64,000 bases of DNA from Patescibacteria group bacterium (GCA_034003985.1 JAVEXP010000002.1:144789-208788); one strand, 5' to 3'. Positions 608-31,407 are shown, counted from the first letter of the stretch. The notes: generated from the letters alone by a model not told the origin. Program-made: numbers and translations.

Positions 608-1762
608 ATGAAAATCGCCATTGTCACTCCAACTTTTCCACCATATGCCGGCGGTATTGGCAATGTTGCGGCTTTTAACGCCGGTGAGCTGGTTAAGCTT
701 GGGCATCAGGTGACAATTTTTACCCCCAAGTACGAGGAAGCCAAAGAAGAGCTGACCGAGCTGGATATTAAGCGAATTTCACCTTGGTTTAAATATGGCA
801 ATGCCGCCTTTGTTCCAAGCTTGGCTAGGTTGCTTCGGGGTTATGATATTGTCCATCTTCATTATCCATTTTTTGGCGGCGCGGAAAGTATTTGGCTAAG
901 GTCGCATGGTTTAAAAAAACGAGGGGCTAAAATCGTTTTGCATTATCACATGGATGTTATCGGCCAAAGTTGGTTGAAATGGATTTTCAAACTCCATCGG
1001 ATTTTGGTTTTACCCCGAATTGTTAAAATGGCTGATAAAATTATTTTTACCTCGTTGGATTATGGTCAAACCTCGGATTTAGCTAAGTGGTATAAAAAAA
1101 ATCCCGCCAAGTTTTTGGAAGTGCCAAATGGCGTAGATACTAAAAGATTTTTACCTCAACCAAAAGATCAGGCTTTGTTGGCTAAACATCAAATCAATCC
1201 CGATGAGCGGGTAGTGATGTTTGTTGGTGGTTTGGATCAGGCGCATTATTTTAAAGGCATTGAATATTTGATTGAGGCGGTGAGTATTTTGCGTAATGCC
1301 GACTATCCGTGGAAGTTGGTTATTGTCGGAGAGGGGGATTTAAAGCCGCAGTATCAAAATTTGGTTGGTCAGTTAAAGCTGGAATTTCGCGTGGTTTTCA
1401 CCGGTTATGTTCCTAACGACGATTTACCAAAATATTATAATCTTGCTGATTTGGTAGTGCTGCCGTCAGTTGATCGCTCCGAAGCTTTCGGACTATGTTT
1501 GGTGGAAGCGATGAGCTGCGGTAAGCCGGTGGTGGCTTCCGATTTGGCCGGGGTGCGCAGCGTGGTGATTAACGAGATGAATGGTTTATTGGCCAAGCCC
1601 AAGGATGCCAATAATCTAGCTTCCAGAATAAACTTTTTTTTGGCCAACCCCGCTTTGGCTCAGGAATATGGCCGGCAGGGCGTAAATCAGACCAAATTAA
1701 AATATGATTGGCCGATTGTCGCCCAGAAGCTGGATCGGCTCTATCTGGAATTAAAATCTTAA
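608..1762 (+). CDS. glycosyltransferase family 4 (GT-B fold, retaining)
   Basis: 384 aa; C-terminal 'EAFGLCLVEAMSCGKPVVASDLAGVRSVV' matches the GT4 E-x7-E sugar-nucleotide binding signature; 'VGGLDQAHYFKGIEYLIEA' resembles the GT4 linker. Confidence 0.85.
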   Translation: MKIAIVTPTFPPYAGGIGNVAAFNAGELVKLGHQVTIFTPKYEEAKEELTELDIKRISPWFKYGNAAFVPSLARLLRGYDIVHLHYPFFGGAESIWLRSHGLKKRGAKIVLHYHMDVIGQSWLKWIFKLHRILVLPRIVKMADKIIFTSLDYGQTSDLAKWYKKNPAKFLEVPNGVDTKRFLPQPKDQALLAKHQINPDERVVMFVGGLDQAHYFKGIEYLIEAVSILRNADYPWKLVIVGEGDLKPQYQNLVGQLKLEFRVVFTGYVPNDDLPKYYNLADLVVLPSVDRSEAFGLCLVEAMSCGKPVVASDLAGVRSVVINEMNGLLAKPKDANNLASRINFFLANPALAQEYGRQGVNQTKLKYDWPIVAQKLDRLYLELKS

Positions 1763-1764
1763 AT

Positions 1765-2937
1765 ATGAAGATTGCCGTTATTCATAGCTTATTTCGTCCT
1801 TACAAACGCGGCGGCGCTGAAGTGGTGGTTGATATTGTTGTTAATGAACTTACCAAGCTCGGCCATCAGGTGGTTTTAATTACCCTGGGCCGGGAAAACC
1901 GCGTTCAGCAGGAAGGCGACTTGAAAATTTACCGGATTGATCCATTTAATGTTTTTTCCTTTTTAGATATCAACAACCGCCCAATCTGGCTACGGGTTTT
2001 CTGGCATCCGCTGGATGTTTTTAATGTTAGCAGCTATCGTCGGGTTAAAAATATTTTAAAGCAGGAACAGCCTGAAGTGGTTTTGACTCACAATCTTAAA
2101 GGTATCGGTTATCTGGTGCCGCGGGCTATTAAAAAAGCCGGCATTCGACATATTCATACGGTTCATGATGTTCAGCTTTCACGGCCGTCTGGTTTAATCA
2201 TTTATGGCCAGGAAAAACCTTTCTTGTTGATTGACAAGGTTTACGAAAAAACGGTTCGGCGCTTGATGGGCAGTCCCGATGTTGTAATTTCGCCTTCGCG
2301 TTGGTTGATGGGATATTACCAAGCTAGGGGATTTTTTTATGAGTCAAAAAAAATTATTTTGCCCAATCCGATTATTTTTAAAAAAGTTGACAAACAGCCT
2401 GATGATGAAGCCGCCAGCCAGATTATTAAATTGATTTTTGTCGGCCAACTTGAACGCTTTAAAGGCATTTTGTTTTTAATTGAAGCTTTAAAAAAAATTA
2501 GCTCCCCAAATTGGCAGTTGTTGATTGTCGGTTCTGGCGGGGCGGAAACCGAAGTTAAGCAGGCAGTTGATGGTGACCAGCATTTTCAATTGATCGGGCG
2601 GGTGGAGCAAAATAAGCTGGCTGATTATTATCGTCAGGCCGATTTGACGGTGGTGCCGTCACTATGTTATGAAAATTCGCCCAAGGTTATCGACGAAAGC
2701 TTGGTGGCTAATGTGCCGGTGATTGCCTCGGATATCGGCGGAGTCAGCGAGATTGTCAAAGACGATTACAACGGCTTTACTTTTGCGCCCGGTAATCAGG
2801 AAAATTTAATTGAGGTTTTAGAATACTTCTTGAATCATCCCGAAAAAATCGCGGAATTAAAAAAGAACTGCTTTGTGTCAGTCCGCAACTTTTCGGTTGG
2901 CAATTATTTGAAAAAAATTATTTCTCTTATCCAATAA
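1765..2937 (+). CDS. glycosyltransferase family 4 (second copy)
   Basis: Start moved to ATG at 1765 ('MKIAVIHS', same N-terminus style as the preceding GT4); overlaps the upstream stop, suggesting translational coupling. 'ENSPKVIDESLVANVPVIASDIGGVSEIV' matches the GT4 C-terminal motif. Confidence 0.8.
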   Translation: MKIAVIHSLFRPYKRGGAEVVVDIVVNELTKLGHQVVLITLGRENRVQQEGDLKIYRIDPFNVFSFLDINNRPIWLRVFWHPLDVFNVSSYRRVKNILKQEQPEVVLTHNLKGIGYLVPRAIKKAGIRHIHTVHDVQLSRPSGLIIYGQEKPFLLIDKVYEKTVRRLMGSPDVVISPSRWLMGYYQARGFFYESKKIILPNPIIFKKVDKQPDDEAASQIIKLIFVGQLERFKGILFLIEALKKISSPNWQLLIVGSGGAETEVKQAVDGDQHFQLIGRVEQNKLADYYRQADLTVVPSLCYENSPKVIDESLVANVPVIASDIGGVSEIVKDDYNGFTFAPGNQENLIEVLEYFLNHPEKIAELKKNCFVSVRNFSVGNYLKKIISLIQ

Positions 2938-2945
2938 AAGATTTA

Positions 2946-2977
2946 GAGCCGCTGACATGGGGAGTAGTCAGCGGCTC
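2946..2977. terminator. perfect 11-bp stem hairpin (GAGCCGCTGAC/GTCAGCGGCTC) between convergent genes
   Basis: Inverted repeat read directly in the sequence. It is followed on the plus strand by a G8 tract and on the minus strand by a T-rich stretch, so it could terminate either or both convergent genes. Confidence 0.45.
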
Positions 2978-3000
2978 CTGAGGGGGGGGAGGGAAGGTGT

Positions 3001-3372
3001 CTAGTCGACGCCGGCCGGTTGCAAGCACTTGTGTGCTGCTTCGGTTGCGGCGAGTTGTGCCATGTAGGCACTGACACCGCCAGCGTAGGGGCGAGCGCTC
3101 TCAAGCGCCTGAAGTTCGCCGATGCGACCGTTGATGGCATTCGTCATGTCCAGGAAGTTGGGTGGGTTGCACCCAATCGGGAAATTGTCGCACAGACACT
3201 TCCACAGTTCCTGGCCGATCAGCGGATTCTGGGGATTATCTCCCGTTAGCGTGGCGACGGCGTCGCACACATCCGCTTCGGGCGCATCGATCGCGTCCGC
3301 AACCTGTCGCAACAATTCGGCGAGTTCCTCGTGGCCATTGGCCAGTTCATTGAAGGTGCGTTTGAGTGGCAT
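3001..3372 (-). CDS. hypothetical small Cys-containing protein on a GC-rich (foreign-looking) island
   Basis: 123-aa ORF. Local GC is far above the window background, with GC-rich codon use. An AGGAG-like RBS ('aggagatcaagg') lies upstream of the ATG. No domain recognised. Confidence 0.5.
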   Translation of the reverse strand: MPLKRTFNELANGHEELAELLRQVADAIDAPEADVCDAVATLTGDNPQNPLIGQELWKCLCDNFPIGCNPPNFLDMTNAINGRIGELQALESARPYAGGVSAYMAQLAATEAAHKCLQPAGVD

Positions 3373-3415
3373 GCCTTGATCTCCTATGGTTTTTGGGCTC
3401 CTGCCAGTTGTCTGT

Positions 3416-3424
3416 ATAATAGCA
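3416..3424 (-). promoter_or_regulatory. putative extended -10 (TGcTATTAT on minus strand) for the GC-rich gene 3001..3372
   Basis: Minus-strand 'AAAATATGCTATTATAC' about 45 nt upstream of the start codon. The same 15-mer context occurs upstream of the second GC-rich gene (25851..25859). Confidence 0.35.
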
Positions 3425-3573
3425 TATTTTATTGATTAAGTCAATATAAAAGTAATAAAAAAAGACTAAATTAAGGTATTTTTAAAGTCAAAATCGTCAT
3501 ATTTTTGCTGTTGTGAAATTTAAAGTTTGGTTTTTTGATATGTGTCTGTTATCCGGATAGAATATGTTCAATA

Positions 3574-3827
3574 TGTCATCCTGGATTACCCATTCTGTAA
3601 TCCCGAGTATTCTTATTGTCATCCTGAATCCTCCATTCTGTCATCCTGAGCGAAGCGAAGGATCTAGATTCTTCGGCCTGCGGCCTCAGAATGACACGGA
3701 ATTTAAGTTTAATAATTTAAAACAGCTAATCTATATTTTTTCATATCATTCTTCTGTCATCCTGAGTCCCGACACGAATACTCCCTTTGTCATCCTGAGT
3801 CACGACGCAGTCGGGACGAAGGATCTC
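3574..3827. repeat. cluster of five copies of a short dispersed repeat (core TGTCATCCTGA[GA]); two copies extend into hairpin-forming modules
   Basis: Copies at 3574, 3617, 3639-3695 (TGTCATCCTGAGCGAAGCGAAGGATCT...CCTCAGAATGACA, a near-perfect inverted repeat), 3755 and 3788-3827 (contains the GTCCCGAC/GTCGGGAC palindrome). A sixth copy lies at 10893..10926. Confidence 0.7.
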
Positions 3828-3897
3828 TAAGATTTACGAATTTAATAAAAAACACGCCGATTTGATATTGATCAGCGCTTATATTAGTTATTAAATT

Positions 3898-6000
3898 TTA
3901 TGGCAGCCTGTATTTAAAAATGTAGATTTTACCGCCGTCAATGATGATGATGTCATCAGCTTGGGCTGACGCTTTGGCGGCAATTTTTTCGGCATCTTTC
4001 CAGTATTGATTCAAAACAAAATAGCTTTCGCTCACTCGGGCTTGGCTCATCGCTTGTTCCATTGTCTGGCGCGGAGTATCTTGATAAACCATTGCTAAAT
4101 AGTAATTGTAAAAATTTTGGGCGTTTCCGTTGGGCAGGGAATAATAAAATTCCTCACCAAAATATTTTTTAAAGCCAAATTCCTTGATTGCTGCCGCACC
4201 TACCATTTGGTTGGCCAACACCAGATGATTGGGGTTGGCGGTTTGTTCAATATAATTAACGGCTTTAAGGTCGGCTGCCGATAGACTAAAAAATTTAGCC
4301 GGTTCGTAATTGTTCAGCCGGGGGTAAGATAAATACAGGCTGATGTTTAATAATCCGGCCAGCCCAATAATCACCAGCAGTTTAGTCGCCCAGTCATATT
4401 CCCATAATTTTTTGATTAGCAAATAAACTCCTAGCAAAAAGAAGGGGATTAAAACATAGAATGCTAAAGTCAATAATCGGGAAGTAAAGCTTTCCTGGTC
4501 GTATTCGCGCAAGCTGGAAAAATCCATGAAATATTTGACGATGATGAAATCAATAAATACCACCATCGCCGAAACCAGGTAGCCCGAATTATTTTTGAGC
4601 AATTTGTACTTGGCAATATAAATCAGCCCAATTAGAACGATGGCCCCGGCCAGTACGATTTTGTTAATATTGATTAAATAAACCAGATTCAACGGTAGGT
4701 CAAAGCCGTTTAACCAGCCGCCCAGCCATTGTAAATCTCGCCAGCCCAGATCGGGTAAATTCAGGTTCAGGCCCGAGCCATTGAGTGCCAATGCCAATGG
4801 AATAAAGACGGTAAAGATAATGGCTGTTAAAAAGTATAGGCTTAAATATTGGCGGTAGCTGTGGTAAAGTTTTTTAAACAGCATCAGTAAAAATATACTG
4901 ATAGCCAGCGGAATTCCTGCCAGCGGATGGATCACCAAAGTCGCTGCCACCAGCAGCCATAAAGCTGTTGGCGACAATTGATTTTTGTAATACAAAAACG
5001 ACAGGACAATAGTTATTAAAAACAGCAGGTTGGCGAAGTTTTGCGGGGCAGTCATAATAAAACCGCCATAAGGCATGATTAAAATTGCCAGCGCCAAAAC
5101 CAGAGCGTATTTTTTTTCCAGCCATTGGCTAAAAACATAAAAGATGCTTGGCCCCGAAAAAATCGCAAACATCGCCGGTACCAATATTCGGTCAATGATC
5201 GTGTAGTCAATACTGGTCAAGTAGTGTAAAAAAATCACCAGACCATATTGTCCCAAGTAGTATAATGGTCGGGGAGTAATGGTGCCAGTAGTCAGAATGA
5301 TTTTTTCGCTGGCTTGGTGGATGAACGGGTCAAACCCGTAACCGATTTGGTAGACGATTACGGCAATTCCGCTGCTTAATAAACCATGGAGGACAATCAG
5401 TGTTAGTGGCAGTTTGGTTCGTTTCGACCGCAACAGGTAGATTGTCAAAATCGTGCTGGCTGAAAAATATAAAACAAAAAAGTATCGGCTGATAACCTGC
5501 CAAGGTGATTGGATTGATTCAACGGTTTGGCCTTGCCAGACCAGCCAAGTCGCCAAACCGGCTGAAATCAAATAGCCCAAAACCAGCAGAAAATTGGTTT
5601 TTGGTTCGCGCCGTTCGTCAAATTTAGCCAGGTAGTTCTTTAGACTCCGCCACAATGAAAATTTTTCCGTCAGCTCGGTATAATAATAAGGCGTGGCTAA
5701 AATGGCGGGAATCAAAAAGATAAGCAATACAAAAAAATAAGCATTGAACTGATACAGGTAAATCGCACTGCCACCGGTTAAAGCGACGGCGGCAAACATA
5801 AACAAAATACCAAAGAGTATTTGCCAGCCTTTTTCGGGGATAAAAATCGATCCGAAAATTGATCCAAAAAATAGCAGATAAACCCCGCCAACGGCCAGCG
5901 CGACGATTTGATTGTGCCACCAAAGGAAATTAGCCGTAATTAAAAAACCCAACAGGCCGCTGACAGCAAGATAATTTAATTTGGAAATTTTGTCATTCAT
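3898..6000 (-). CDS. polytopic integral membrane protein with C-terminal soluble domain (possible GT-C glycosyltransferase / polymerase-like)
   Basis: 700 aa. More than 12 hydrophobic helices span the first ~560 aa, followed by a ~140-aa hydrophilic tail. It is divergent from a GT-C gene and adjacent to GT4 genes. No catalytic motif confirmed. Confidence 0.4.
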   Translation of the reverse strand: MNDKISKLNYLAVSGLLGFLITANFLWWHNQIVALAVGGVYLLFFGSIFGSIFIPEKGWQILFGILFMFAAVALTGGSAIYLYQFNAYFFVLLIFLIPAILATPYYYTELTEKFSLWRSLKNYLAKFDERREPKTNFLLVLGYLISAGLATWLVWQGQTVESIQSPWQVISRYFFVLYFSASTILTIYLLRSKRTKLPLTLIVLHGLLSSGIAVIVYQIGYGFDPFIHQASEKIILTTGTITPRPLYYLGQYGLVIFLHYLTSIDYTIIDRILVPAMFAIFSGPSIFYVFSQWLEKKYALVLALAILIMPYGGFIMTAPQNFANLLFLITIVLSFLYYKNQLSPTALWLLVAATLVIHPLAGIPLAISIFLLMLFKKLYHSYRQYLSLYFLTAIIFTVFIPLALALNGSGLNLNLPDLGWRDLQWLGGWLNGFDLPLNLVYLININKIVLAGAIVLIGLIYIAKYKLLKNNSGYLVSAMVVFIDFIIVKYFMDFSSLREYDQESFTSRLLTLAFYVLIPFFLLGVYLLIKKLWEYDWATKLLVIIGLAGLLNISLYLSYPRLNNYEPAKFFSLSAADLKAVNYIEQTANPNHLVLANQMVGAAAIKEFGFKKYFGEEFYYSLPNGNAQNFYNYYLAMVYQDTPRQTMEQAMSQARVSESYFVLNQYWKDAEKIAAKASAQADDIIIIDGGKIYIFKYRLP

Positions 6001-6054: not shown

Positions 6055-7650
6055 ATGCTGACTAATCGTTTGCCAAATAATTCACCTTTATCATCGTCAA
6101 GATACCTTTTGGCCGGTTTGGCGTTGGTTTTTTTGGTGGTTTATTGTTTTTTGGCTACACCAATTGCCACCGATACTAATGTTGGCCAGCGGTTTGATTG
6201 GCCCGATGAAACCGCCAATTATTTTTGGTCGAAATATTATGCCCAATCCGGCGAACTGACCGCACCCGAGCCGCTTAATTTTGTCGCTCAAAACCAGATT
6301 TATCCCCGCAGTTTCAATGTCCGATCCGACGGTTCGCTGGTGCCGGGAAGTTTTTTGGGTTTGATTTTGCTTTTCGGCACAATCGCTAAAATTTTTGGCA
6401 GTTGGTCGTTGATTTATTTAACGCCGCTGTTGGGTGTTTTAGCAGTCTTTGCTTTTTACATTATTGTCAAAGAAATTTTTAATCCTAAAATTGCGTTAAT
6501 CGCTGCGATTTTGATGTTGTTTAATCCGGCCTGGTGGTATTATTCAGTGACCGCAATGCTGCCCAATGTCGCGTTTGTTTCTTTGCTATTAATGAGCATC
6601 GCGTTCCTGTTTGGCAAAAAATTTGATTATTGGCAGCTGCTGCTCTCGGCTTTCCTACTTGGTTTAGCGGTTTTAGTCCGGCCGTCAGAATTTATTTGGA
6701 TTGGTTTTATTTATTTAGTCCTGGTTTTTTATCTGCGGCCAAAATTGAATTTGGTTAAAGTCATTTTATATTTAGCCGTGGTCGCCACCGTGATTCTACC
6801 GATTTTTTATCAACAGCAGATTTTGTACGGCAGCTTTCTGGCTTCCGGTTATAGCCAGCTTCAAGACCAGTCATCTACTTGCCAGTGGTGCGATACGGTC
6901 AAGTCTTTGATCTTGCCTTTTGGTTTTCATCCACGATTGTTGGCCAGCAATCTCTGGACTCATTATTTCAGCCGGTTGTGGTGGTTGTCGCTGTTGGCGG
7001 TTTTGGGATTAGTAGCTTTCTTGACTCAACGCGGCAAACCTAAACCCGAAACTTTTGTTTATATTTTACTCAGCTTGGTAATTTTTGGCTGGCTGGGCGT
7101 ATACTACGGCAGTTGGGAATTTGCCGATCAGTTGACTGTTCACTTAAACACTTTGGGGTTGTCCTATGTTCGTTATTGGCTGCCGTTATATTTGATGGCT
7201 TTGCCTTTTGTGGCAATTAGTTTGATATTTTTGTCTCAATTTTTTCCTCCGCGCTGGCGCCGGTTGGTTATCGCCTTCCTGCTTTTGGCTTTATTTTATC
7301 AATCTGCCAGCTTGGTGCTGTTTAAAAAACCAGACAGTATTGTGCCGGTGCGCCAGCGAATTGCCGAATATAAAAATGTCGCACGCCAGGTTTATGATTT
7401 AACACCCGAAGATGCTGTTATTGTCACAGTTCGTAAAGACAAGGTTTTTTTTCCTCAGCGGGCGGTAATTCATACTTTCGAGGCGCTGTCTTTGAATCCG
7501 GCTTTAATTGAAATTCTGCCGGCCTTGAAAACCAAAGTGCCTTTATATTATTACGCTTTGGGTCCTGAACCGCAGCTAAAAATCGCTGATAATTTGATTT
7601 TGGAAGAAGTGGCCAATATTGGCCAGGAAGTTTTATACCAAATCAAATGA
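6055..7650 (+). CDS. GT-C fold glycosyltransferase (ArnT / PMT, GT39/GT83-like)
   Basis: 531 aa, multi-pass. The first extracytoplasmic loop carries 'FDWPDETANYF', resembling the conserved D-E motif of ArnT/PMT-family GT-C enzymes. Confidence 0.6.
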   Translation: MLTNRLPNNSPLSSSRYLLAGLALVFLVVYCFLATPIATDTNVGQRFDWPDETANYFWSKYYAQSGELTAPEPLNFVAQNQIYPRSFNVRSDGSLVPGSFLGLILLFGTIAKIFGSWSLIYLTPLLGVLAVFAFYIIVKEIFNPKIALIAAILMLFNPAWWYYSVTAMLPNVAFVSLLLMSIAFLFGKKFDYWQLLLSAFLLGLAVLVRPSEFIWIGFIYLVLVFYLRPKLNLVKVILYLAVVATVILPIFYQQQILYGSFLASGYSQLQDQSSTCQWCDTVKSLILPFGFHPRLLASNLWTHYFSRLWWLSLLAVLGLVAFLTQRGKPKPETFVYILLSLVIFGWLGVYYGSWEFADQLTVHLNTLGLSYVRYWLPLYLMALPFVAISLIFLSQFFPPRWRRLVIAFLLLALFYQSASLVLFKKPDSIVPVRQRIAEYKNVARQVYDLTPEDAVIVTVRKDKVFFPQRAVIHTFEALSLNPALIEILPALKTKVPLYYYALGPEPQLKIADNLILEEVANIGQEVLYQIK

Positions 7651-24931: not shown

Positions 24932-24974
24932 TTTAGATAAACAAAAAACAGCCGGATTGCTGTGGGGGGGGTGA

Positions 24975-25006
24975 GGGGAGAGAAGTCCATATTTGGATCT
25001 CTCCCC
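24975..25006. terminator. perfect 9-bp stem hairpin (GGGGAGAGA/TCTCTCCCC) beside a G8 tract, between convergent genes
   Basis: Read directly. It lies downstream of the stop of the minus-strand GC-rich gene (25029) and downstream of paralog 5 (24931). The arrangement mirrors the hairpin/poly-G pair at 2946-2998. Confidence 0.45.
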
Positions 25007-25028
25007 TCGGCGTGCGCGTTGGTGGGGT

Positions 25029-25685
25029 CTACGGGATGGCGATTCCATACCAGTCTTCTGAGAGGCGCAGGATTTCGATCTCGACGATTTTGCCGTCTTC
25101 GAAGGTCGCCAGGAATCCCTCGCAGTATTGAAGCTGGCCTTCAATTGCGTCCATCGTCATTGGCAGATTTGCACCCAGCCGGTTGGACAGTTTGATGGCC
25201 GCGCCGTCGATGGCCGCGCCGTGGACGGTGACCAAGTGGTCTCCTTCTACGGCTCCGCGTTCGTCAATGACTTCGAGCATCTCGCTACTCTTAATGTCTA
25301 CTGCCTCGGGAGCCGTTTCCATAATCGCCGCTTCGACGGTGATCTCGGCTGTCTTGGCATGGGCTTTGGCGGCCTTCAAACCTTCGCTTACGATGTCGCG
25401 CTTGTCAGTGCTGAAATCATCCAGCCGCGGATCATGCGCAATGTCGGGCTCGATAGCCGGTTTGTAGCCGCAGATCCCGCGGACGAGCACGATCAGGGTT
25501 CGCCAGCACCGGGGCTGGGGACTGCTGACATAGTCGACAAAGTGAAAGTTGAAGACCCGGACAAATACTCCCATCACAAATGCGATGACTTCGCCGCAGT
25601 CGGTCAGGGCCTGGGGGTCTTTCTCGTTTGCCTTGTCTCTCTCACTGTGTCGAATAACCAGTACTCTTGATTGCATCAGTCTCAT
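25029..25685 (-). CDS. histidine phosphatase superfamily protein (SixA / PGM-like branch), GC-rich foreign-looking gene
   Basis: Start set at the internal Met ('MRLMQSRVLVIRHSE...'), which has an AAGGA RBS 8 nt upstream. 'RVLVIRHSERD' matches the RHG motif context, 'LTDCGEV' the L-T-x-x-G loop, 'YVSSPQPRCWRT' the 'vySSPl.Ra.qTA' motif, and 'HLVTVHGAAI' the second catalytic His motif. GC is far above background. Confidence 0.6.
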   Translation of the reverse strand: MRLMQSRVLVIRHSERDKANEKDPQALTDCGEVIAFVMGVFVRVFNFHFVDYVSSPQPRCWRTLIVLVRGICGYKPAIEPDIAHDPRLDDFSTDKRDIVSEGLKAAKAHAKTAEITVEAAIMETAPEAVDIKSSEMLEVIDERGAVEGDHLVTVHGAAIDGAAIKLSNRLGANLPMTMDAIEGQLQYCEGFLATFEDGKIVEIEILRLSEDWYGIAIP

Positions 25686-25850
25686 CCTTCTTGTCTGGCC
25701 GCATTCTCTATTGCGGCCGCCATTCCTGCCATAAGTCACCAATCACACTGGTTGACTCGATAAAGCAGCAATCAGCACAGGGCGATTGCCGCTCAATTGA
25801 GCCAACCAATGATATAACACGCACTATTTAACTTTAAAGAACGATATATG

Positions 25851-31125: not shown

Positions 31126-31407
31126 TTATTTTTTGGGGACAATGCTTACAAATTTCGCCCATTCAAGCTTGCCGGTAAATTTCTTTATTTTTTTTCTGGT
31201 GAATTTAACAACCCCGGATTTCAAAGCGTAAAGGGTGTCATCAGCGCCGATTTTGACATTCAATCCCGGTCTGATTTTGGTTCCGCGTTGGCGGAATATG
31301 ATATTGCCAGCCTTTGCCTCTTGGCCATCGTATAATTTGGCGCCCAAGCGTTTGGACTGGGAATCTCGGCCTAAACTTGTGGAACCACCGGCTTTCTTAT
31401 GTGCCAT
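31126..31407 (-). CDS. rpmA: 50S ribosomal protein L27
   Basis: 93 aa. '[29 protein letters not shown]...[15 protein letters not shown]' is canonical L27. Confidence 0.9.

Follow-up and report, generated by a model that had tools for sequence, protein, structure and literature searches.

In a 64,000-nucleotide stretch of DNA from a Patescibacteria group bacterium (GCA_034003985.1 JAVEXP010000002.1:144789-208788), hereafter the window, a short GC-rich island carries on its minus strand a gene for a protein of 123 amino acids (3001-3372), and it is this small gene that we analyzed here. We have very little doubt that its product is a soluble, acidic, and helical protein from a clade-restricted accessory family, and that the gene occupies a variable, recombining slot within a cluster of cell-envelope glycan genes. 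Our best explanation as a whole, which joins a real clade-restricted gene to a GC richness driven by family and slot and to a role in binding another protein, is held with somewhat better than even confidence.

The island gene and its protein family

When GC content is read in 200-bp windows, the island stands at 0.55-0.60 across ~2945-3410, with 0.27-0.44 on both sides, which agrees with the ~450 bp of higher GC amid AT-rich DNA described by an initial annotation made from the sequence. This annotation had also placed a Cys-containing protein of 123 residues on the minus strand, and both strings quoted for it, ELAELLRQVADAIDAPEAD and WKCLCDNFPIGCNPP...HKCL, are indeed present in the translation of 3001-3372. 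The compositional analysis it proposed gave a GC of 0.597 and a GC content at third codon positions (GC3) of 0.69 for the small gene in a genome of ~41% GC, versus 0.415 +/- 0.026 and 0.42 +/- 0.035, respectively, for the host open reading frames (ORFs) of at least 250 residues (n = 36; highest GC3 0.49). In fact, the gene has the highest GC of all ORFs of at least 90 residues in the window. Its length alone is no proof of a gene, because an open frame of at least 135 codons is found in 11% of mononucleotide shuffles of the island. Rather, the codon-position periodicity of GC (0.66, 0.44, and 0.69 for GC1, GC2, and GC3), the homologs, and a ratio of nonsynonymous to synonymous substitution rates (dN/dS) below 1 together establish 3001-3372 as a genuine protein gene. 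Moreover, the island is not an assembly artefact, since three assemblies are identical over both of its junctions; here, a 4.2-kb Logan contig (window 1-3695) and a 689-bp ENA contig (window 2941-3629) each match the window at 100% identity.

An exhaustive phmmer search of 1.84 billion representatives returned 13 matches beyond the query itself, nine of which are small homologs of 85-127 residues with 30-43% identity to the 123-residue protein (E-values of 1e-18 to 2e-4) and a common N-terminal start, and a local jackhmmer search confirmed this nine-member family of small proteins. Four giant proteins (P0006, P0007, P0011, and P0013) were rejected as spurious, as their only match is the string 'TLTGDNPQ', which stems from their tandem Ig-like repeats. 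When 5.8 billion proteins were searched by word index, no relatives emerged beyond those from phmmer, and a metagenome scan for the small gene gave no further locus beyond one already known. The family comprises about a dozen distinct sequences, is labeled 'hypothetical protein' in database records, and has an alignment too divergent for DNA-pattern scans. As the initial annotation had anticipated, no family could be assigned, and the profile searches it called for matched neither a housekeeping family nor any other. Searches of Pfam and NCBIfam gave only noise at E > 0.01, a sequence-profile search of the Protein Data Bank (PDB) returned nothing but de novo helical bundles, none with E better than 0.02, and a Foldseek comparison of the predicted model with the PDB and BFVD found nothing with E < 0.5. 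None of ten family members matched in PADLOC, and one matched in PHROGs, at E = 0.099 only. Rfam had no match in the whole window at gathering thresholds, and in a lenient search of 2800-4000 (E up to 10) the top match, with E = 0.17, lay far under its gathering score. No relative of the small protein was found in IMG/VR, the INPHARED phages, or the PLSDB plasmids, and a literature search found nothing relevant. With high confidence, then, we regard this as an unannotated small family, so far seen only in Buchananbacteria-like Patescibacteria.

Six residues (L10, A11, L20, E32, C36, and G53) are invariant in the family alignment, and the conserved core reads approximately (R)TFxELAxGHxxLxxLL...EExxC(D)AVxxL...PLxGQxLWxxLxxxFP. 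We define the family by the pattern 'RTF-ELA-G...E-x3-C...G-x2-LW', with homology over a five-helix core, and by a location 3' of a gene for a protein of ~700 residues; the window protein has both. Its five cysteines make up 4.1% of residues versus 0.9% in host proteins, and four to five are found in the window protein and its closest relatives. Three of the five are clustered in WKCLCDNFPIGC; only Cys36, in the N-terminal half, is conserved, with Glu32 four residues ahead of it on the same helix, while C60, C62, C69, and C115 vary across the homologs. AlphaFold2 predicts a single folded six-helix protein (predicted local distance difference test score of 78, predicted template modeling score of 0.61), and no transmembrane segment is found. 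The isoelectric point (pI) is 4.4 and the net charge ~-10, and the family members are likewise predicted to be soluble and are mostly very acidic (pI 4.1-4.6, net charge -6 to -13). Hence, the helical, Cys-containing character first noted was borne out, but the proposed division into a helical leader and a Cys-rich core was not, since the C-terminal cysteines are not conserved and the prediction is of one folded unit.

A variable slot among envelope-glycan genes

The small gene lies in a slot between two anchor genes, and the features in and around this slot are as follows.

1708..2937 (+): gene for a family 4 glycosyltransferase (GT4), in convergent orientation to the small gene and anchoring the slot downstream
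2946..2977 (-): perfect 11-bp hairpin (GAGCCGCTGAC...GTCAGCGGCTC), then TAAATCTTTTATT on the minus strand; between the convergent genes
2982..2997 (-): C-rich tract CCTTCCCTCCCCCCCC in the 3' untranslated region (UTR), directly past the stop codon (sequence reading)
3001..3372 (-): coding sequence (CDS) of the acidic, predicted all-helical 123-residue protein, pI 4.4 (ORF, homologs, alignment, AlphaFold2, dN/dS)
3381..3385 (-): Shine-Dalgarno sequence AGGAG, 8 nt 5' of the ATG (direct sequence reading)
3416..3444 (-): predicted sigma-70-type promoter, TTGACT, 17-nt spacer, TATTAT, with TG ahead of the -10 box (10/12 consensus matches)
3574..3830 (+): cluster of GTCATCCTGAG-type repeats, six copies, one of them inverted (3686-3695); between the small-gene promoter and the 700-residue gene
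3898..6000 (-): gene for a polytopic membrane protein of 700 residues; upstream anchor of the slot
6055-7650: PMT_2 gene

Wherever a homolog lies on a contig that reaches its flanks, it is found in this same slot (6/6: L003, L006, L009, L013, L014, and L096), in each case directly 3' of the gene for a ~700-residue polytopic membrane protein and in the same orientation. The convergent GT4 gene was counted in five of these six loci; the downstream gene differs in L009, and the L096 contig ends before one. What is present on the short contigs L095, L098, and L101-L103 would fit the same slot. The wider cluster, with genes for PMT_2, a ~170-residue protein, a ~65-residue protein, and dTDP-sugar isomerase-like proteins, matches the arrangement in the window, and the clusters of relatives include AftA_N-type enzymes. 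Across the window and six orthologous loci, the Pfam domains of the neighbors are GT4, PMT_2, sugar isomerase, HIT, VanZ, and similar ones. Between these genomes, the flank proteins are 50-75% identical and the small protein 30-48%. A GTDB scan with the 700-residue protein placed its closest relatives in Candidatus Buchananbacteria.

We are equally confident that the slot itself is variable, being empty, or holding one family member, tandem paralogs (some fused to a four-Cys module), or unrelated GC-enriched cargo. Five of the 11 close species representatives have nothing in the slot; in the other six, the GC-enriched slot ORFs encode a 119-residue distant paralog, products of 102 and 112 residues, two small four-Cys proteins, a DapB-like protein (GC of 0.52 in a genome of 0.39), and a cupin-like protein. 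In L014 and L098, a second family member just upstream is fused at its N-terminus to a four-Cys module. This module (C-x19-21-C-x2-4-C-x7-C; L014:5409-5894, L098:197-658, L025:6177-6413, and L016:6625-6834), which has no Pfam match and is absent from the window, is either free-standing (69-78 residues) or an N-terminal fusion to a paralog of the helical family, and because of this fusion there is a hint that the four-Cys and helical modules may work together. Tandem and distant paralogs lack Cys36. Two distant paralogs are basic (L003:5246-5602 and L017:6306-6662, with pI values of 8.7 and 11.0) and have a Lys/Arg-rich tail and then a C-terminal Cys (...KRSKPIC and ...RRRNKRC); P0016 ends in ...RPC. 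Further away, in Falkowbacteria-like lineages of the Candidate Phyla Radiation (CPR) that retain the 700-residue gene, 34 of 60 slots are empty. Some of the others (L032:3038-3331, L033:6191-6469, and L042:5778-6080) hold a different small GC-rich family of 92-100 residues, with GC of 0.51-0.58 in genomes of 0.39-0.41 and the motifs 'MTNEE...EEGDYL...DYPCF', and no similarity between it and the family described here was detected.

No integrase, transposase, tRNA, flanking repeat, or recognizable defense or toxin gene was seen at the slot loci. A scan of the orthologous slots for attC-like or other recombination sites found only terminator hairpins, and an integron-type or other mobile gene cassette was rejected, there being neither an attC-like site in these slots nor an integrase at any locus. 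In the window, a weak AT-rich inverted repeat of 17 nt flanks the island, which is not seen in other slots.

Three closely related alleles (P0016, P0012, and P0015) served for the estimates of dN/dS. Between P0016 and P0012, the small gene has a dN of 0.15, a dS of 0.52, and a dN/dS of 0.29, versus 0.03, 0.36, and 0.087, respectively, for the adjoining end of the 700-residue gene; a second dN/dS value for the small gene is 0.20, and its dN is 5-fold above that of the flank. P0015 is a mosaic in which the first ~68 residues are those of P0016 and the last ~16 those of P0012 (L103:443-697 compared with L009:6001-6264 and L101:634-891), a pattern that points to co-occurring strains having recombined within the small gene. 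Moreover, between P0016 and P0015, the dS of the small gene (0.129) is 8-fold that of the flank (0.016). Since dN/dS is 0.2-0.3, the gene is selected as a protein, and we consider it highly probable that it is under purifying selection, though with weaker constraint than its neighbor, and that it swaps segments between strains.

The GC excess and the possible function of the protein

Back-translation of the 123-residue protein with host codons already yields a GC of 0.506, and so about half of the GC excess comes from amino-acid composition, with about half from C- or G-ending synonymous codons (GC3 of 0.69 versus 0.46 expected). The small protein is rich in Ala, Pro, Gly, Asp, and Glu and poor in Lys and Ile; compared with the host, Ala accounts for 15% versus 7% of residues, Pro for 7% versus 4%, Lys for 2% versus 8%, and Ile for 4% versus 9%. 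Both components are found in most of the orthologs, in which GC1 is 0.60-0.68 in six of seven, the GC of the gene is 5 to 18 points above that of its flank, and GC3 is 0 to 0.20 above that of the adjacent 700-residue gene, mainly through a shift from T3 to C3, with G3 not changed.

In the window copy, G3 is raised too (third positions A 0.15, C 0.42, G 0.27, and T 0.15), and this composition is almost identical to that of a second GC-rich island at 24950-25750 (A 0.19, C 0.43, G 0.25, and T 0.13). The second island has an ORF at 25029-25676/25742 (-) for ~215 residues (GC 0.56, GC3 0.68), whose product shows a weak His_Phos_1 match (E = 0.008) under the curated cut-off and has no relative in the PDB or among plasmids. 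A promoter 14-mer, AAATATGCTAT(T/A)AT, is common to both islands and is mismatch-free only at these two. Immediately past the stop codon of the second-island gene there is a C-rich tract, CCCTCACCCCCCC (24965-24977), like that of the small gene, and a looser one lies 3' of the L003 ortholog. Ranked by C3/(C3+T3), the top gene after the two islands is that for bL27 (31126-31407, minus strand; named from its N-terminal sequence only), with a value of 0.62. Its third-position shift is weaker and in the same direction as in the orthologs, which suggests that C-ending codons are selected in the highly expressed genes of this genome. The top 15 genes of this ranking all lie on the minus strand, which fits a cumulative GC skew that climbs steadily along the window.

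The initial annotation had taken the composition as a sign of recent acquisition. What survives of that claim is the atypical composition itself, together with gain and loss at the slot, GC-enriched cargo, and recombination; a one-off import from afar is contradicted by the same slot in all six homologs. Moreover, the metagenome search it had suggested, for the same cassette in other contexts, gave no other context, and the phage, plasmid, and viral-contig collections held no relative. Because the homologs share the slot, are mostly GC-enriched, and occur in related Patescibacteria, we read the family as clade-endemic and accessory rather than as a distant one-off import. Exchange within the gene pool of the clade is plausible, given the presence and absence of the slot gene, the other GC-enriched cargo, and the recombination. 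That the GC excess is a persistent property of family and slot, and more than the trace of a single recent import yet to be ameliorated, is a compositional inference we hold at about even strength, and an extra foreign component in the window's own allele is possible.

An import of the cassette as such, recently and from a GC-richer donor (for example, a CPR phage not yet sampled, a different mobile element, or a relative of higher GC) into a recombination-prone slot, has real points in its favor, and yet we think it unlikely. It would suit the height of GC3 over the host value, with C3 and G3 both raised, the third-position composition almost that of the unrelated second island, the exact promoter 14-mer and C-rich 3' tract that the islands share, and the gain and loss at a slot that also takes up foreign-type cargo such as the DapB-like gene. 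However, all homologs with usable context lie in one slot of related Patescibacteria, with no relative in the phage, plasmid, and viral collections and, in a search of 1.8 billion representatives, none outside the clade; neither an integrase nor flanking repeats nor attachment-like sites are seen, and about half of the GC excess stems from an amino-acid composition common to the whole family.

In our preferred explanation, the GC richness would arise by recombination-driven exchange within the gene pool of the clade and so reflect family and slot, possibly with a contribution from GC-biased gene conversion or from selection for C-ending codons. The protein itself would act in the cytoplasm by binding another protein, for which it may use the conserved N-terminal helices and the Glu32/Cys36 face of helix 3. 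As a functional class we tentatively favor a factor of some fast-changing interaction, be it an inhibitor, an immunity-like protein, or an adaptor, since fast evolution, tandem paralogy, presence/absence variation, and atypical composition are typical of that class. Colicin DNase immunity proteins, for instance, are small acidic four-helix proteins of ~85 residues. With them, the family here shares a small size (84-127 residues), a predicted all-helical fold, a pI of ~4.1-4.6, rapid evolution, and tandem paralogs; unlike them, it has no cognate toxin gene adjacent at any locus, and no sequence or Foldseek similarity to solved immunity proteins.

Ranked next is a partnership in the cytoplasm, dispensable to the cell, with the envelope-glycosylation membrane protein encoded alongside, and we rate this as improbable, as we do the related proposal of a cytoplasmic accessory subunit or regulator of the 700-residue protein or of a GT-C-type (PMT_2) glycosyltransferase. 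What keeps the accessory-subunit proposal alive is the invariant position and orientation behind the 700-residue gene wherever context is usable; the protein is also small, acidic, and helical, and the cluster has PMT_2 and, in relatives, AftA_N-type enzymes. A known parallel is acyl carrier protein (ACP), also small and acidic, which is bound to the mycobacterial GT-C arabinosyltransferases Emb and AftD. As there, a small acidic helical protein is associated, though here by gene position, with a large polytopic membrane protein of envelope-glycan synthesis, and the start of helix 3, 'EADxCDAV', has a superficial similarity to 'GADSLDTV' of ACP. In contrast to ACP, the family has Ile or Val in place of the phosphopantetheine Ser, there is no PP-binding Pfam match at E up to 10, neither the PDB profile search nor Foldseek matched a carrier protein, and the gene is dispensable in many relatives. 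Speaking further against an accessory subunit, the slot is empty in the aforementioned 5/11 close and 34/60 distant species that retain the 700-residue gene, the small protein has a much higher rate of evolution than the membrane protein, and Falkowbacteria-like slots hold an apparently unrelated small family.

Less probable again is a small thiol- or metal-binding protein (redox, Zn, or Fe-S), a kind that the initial annotation had also mentioned. The invariant Cys36, with Glu32 on the same helix, the four to five cysteines of the window protein and its nearest relatives, and the paralogs fused to or beside a four-Cys module would fit such a role. However, the standalone members have just a single conserved Cys, even this one is missing from the tandem and distant paralogs, and neither a CxxC or HxxxCxxC motif nor a match to a metal-binding or redox family was found. 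A zinc-binding anti-sigma factor was rejected as well, with no HxxxCxxC in the family alignment and no zf-HC2 or sigma-factor Pfam match in the proteins or their neighbors.

A ribosomally synthesized peptide precursor, the other kind of protein that the initial annotation had found loosely similar, is very improbable. The five cysteines, three of them clustered, would suit a helical leader with a Cys-rich core, but the clustered cysteines vary, the putative leader is the best-conserved and best-folded part, and 123 residues with a predicted globular helical fold are not precursor-like. Moreover, no peptide-modifying enzyme is found, the Pfam domains of the neighbors (window and six loci) including no YcaO, radical SAM, lanthipeptide synthetase, peptidase, or ABC exporter. 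Scarcely credible at all is a structured non-coding RNA with a by-product ORF, or an assembly chimera: the equally long frames in shuffles and a transcript that folds better than shuffles (z = -4.4 with UTRs, -3.1 for the CDS alone) are outweighed by protein-level homologs with diverged DNA, dN/dS, codon-position periodicity, the absence of any Rfam match even at E up to 10, and, against a chimera, three independent assemblies. A conserved RNA structure was rejected on the fold z-scores of the orthologs, which are inconsistent (-5.2 to +0.35).

Of known kinds of locus, the closest is the variable genomic islet, in which small ORFs that evolve fast are placed between core genes. Like such islets, or hotspots, this slot has fixed flanking core genes, presence and absence, changing cargo, and atypical composition, along with tandem paralogs, elevated divergence, and mosaic alleles. 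Unlike them, its loci are without an integrase, transposase, tRNA, flanking repeats, or recognizable defense or toxin genes, its cargo is GC-richer than the host rather than AT-richer, and one family recurs at the same place in several species. A bolder proposal, which we consider doubtful, is that the slot 3' of the 700-residue gene is a dedicated, recombination-driven diversification locus of CPR bacteria and an unrecognized conflict or host-interaction system. It would then carry GC-rich acidic proteins and four-Cys partner modules, with differing families in each CPR lineage, in one version as factors that resemble immunity proteins or inhibitors and are linked to the glycan machinery of the cell envelope, and the GC richness would be the footprint of GC-biased gene conversion at a recombination hotspot.

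Taken alone, the gene is one more lineage-restricted hypothetical protein, and its analysis removes a wrong annotation as a precursor peptide of recent horizontal transfer. The wider pattern is of a fixed slot beside envelope-glycan genes in several Patescibacteria lineages that is repeatedly filled by small GC-enriched genes that evolve fast and recombine. CPR bacteria are attached to the cells of their hosts, and very few of their accessory systems are, to our knowledge, characterized; for these reasons, a hypervariable locus near surface-glycan genes is a reasonable place to search for factors of host or phage interaction. It also provides a clean natural setting in which to ask what keeps the GC of a gene high when its genome is AT-rich, with amino-acid composition, codon selection, and biased gene conversion as candidates.

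Expression signals and neighboring features

Judged from its sequence signals, the small gene very probably has its own promoter and ribosome-binding site, with a probable terminator, and would form a separately transcribed unit. The predicted promoter is placed in AT-rich DNA immediately outside the GC-rich block. At the other end, the hairpin at 2946-2977 is likely the terminator, though it is absent from the list produced by a consensus terminator scan. A tRNA/tmRNA search found none.

We count the GTCATCCTGAG repeats as a neighboring feature only. There are ten matches in the window, six of them at 3574-3830, against a chance expectation of 1.9 for the whole window; the remaining four are scattered, with one mismatch each, and are at about chance level. 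Some repeats pair with CGAAGGATCT partners, such that hairpins are possible. A literature search found no paper on the extended motif. The match of the Logan contig L001 to the window ends within this cluster, at 3695.

As for the upstream anchor, the 700-residue protein has 224 tblastn-confirmed relatives in GTDB Patescibacteria genomes and a mean column identity of 74% among five close relatives aligned, and it found no Pfam, NCBIfam, or PDB sequence match, lenient searches included; it is itself a sizeable uncharacterized family of envelope proteins. Many records of metagenome-assembled genomes that have the Patescibacteria-type locus (L024, L026, L039, L040, L042, and others) are Third Party Annotation assemblies titled 'uncultured Gammaproteobacteria bacterium', and these titles are probably mislabeled taxonomy.
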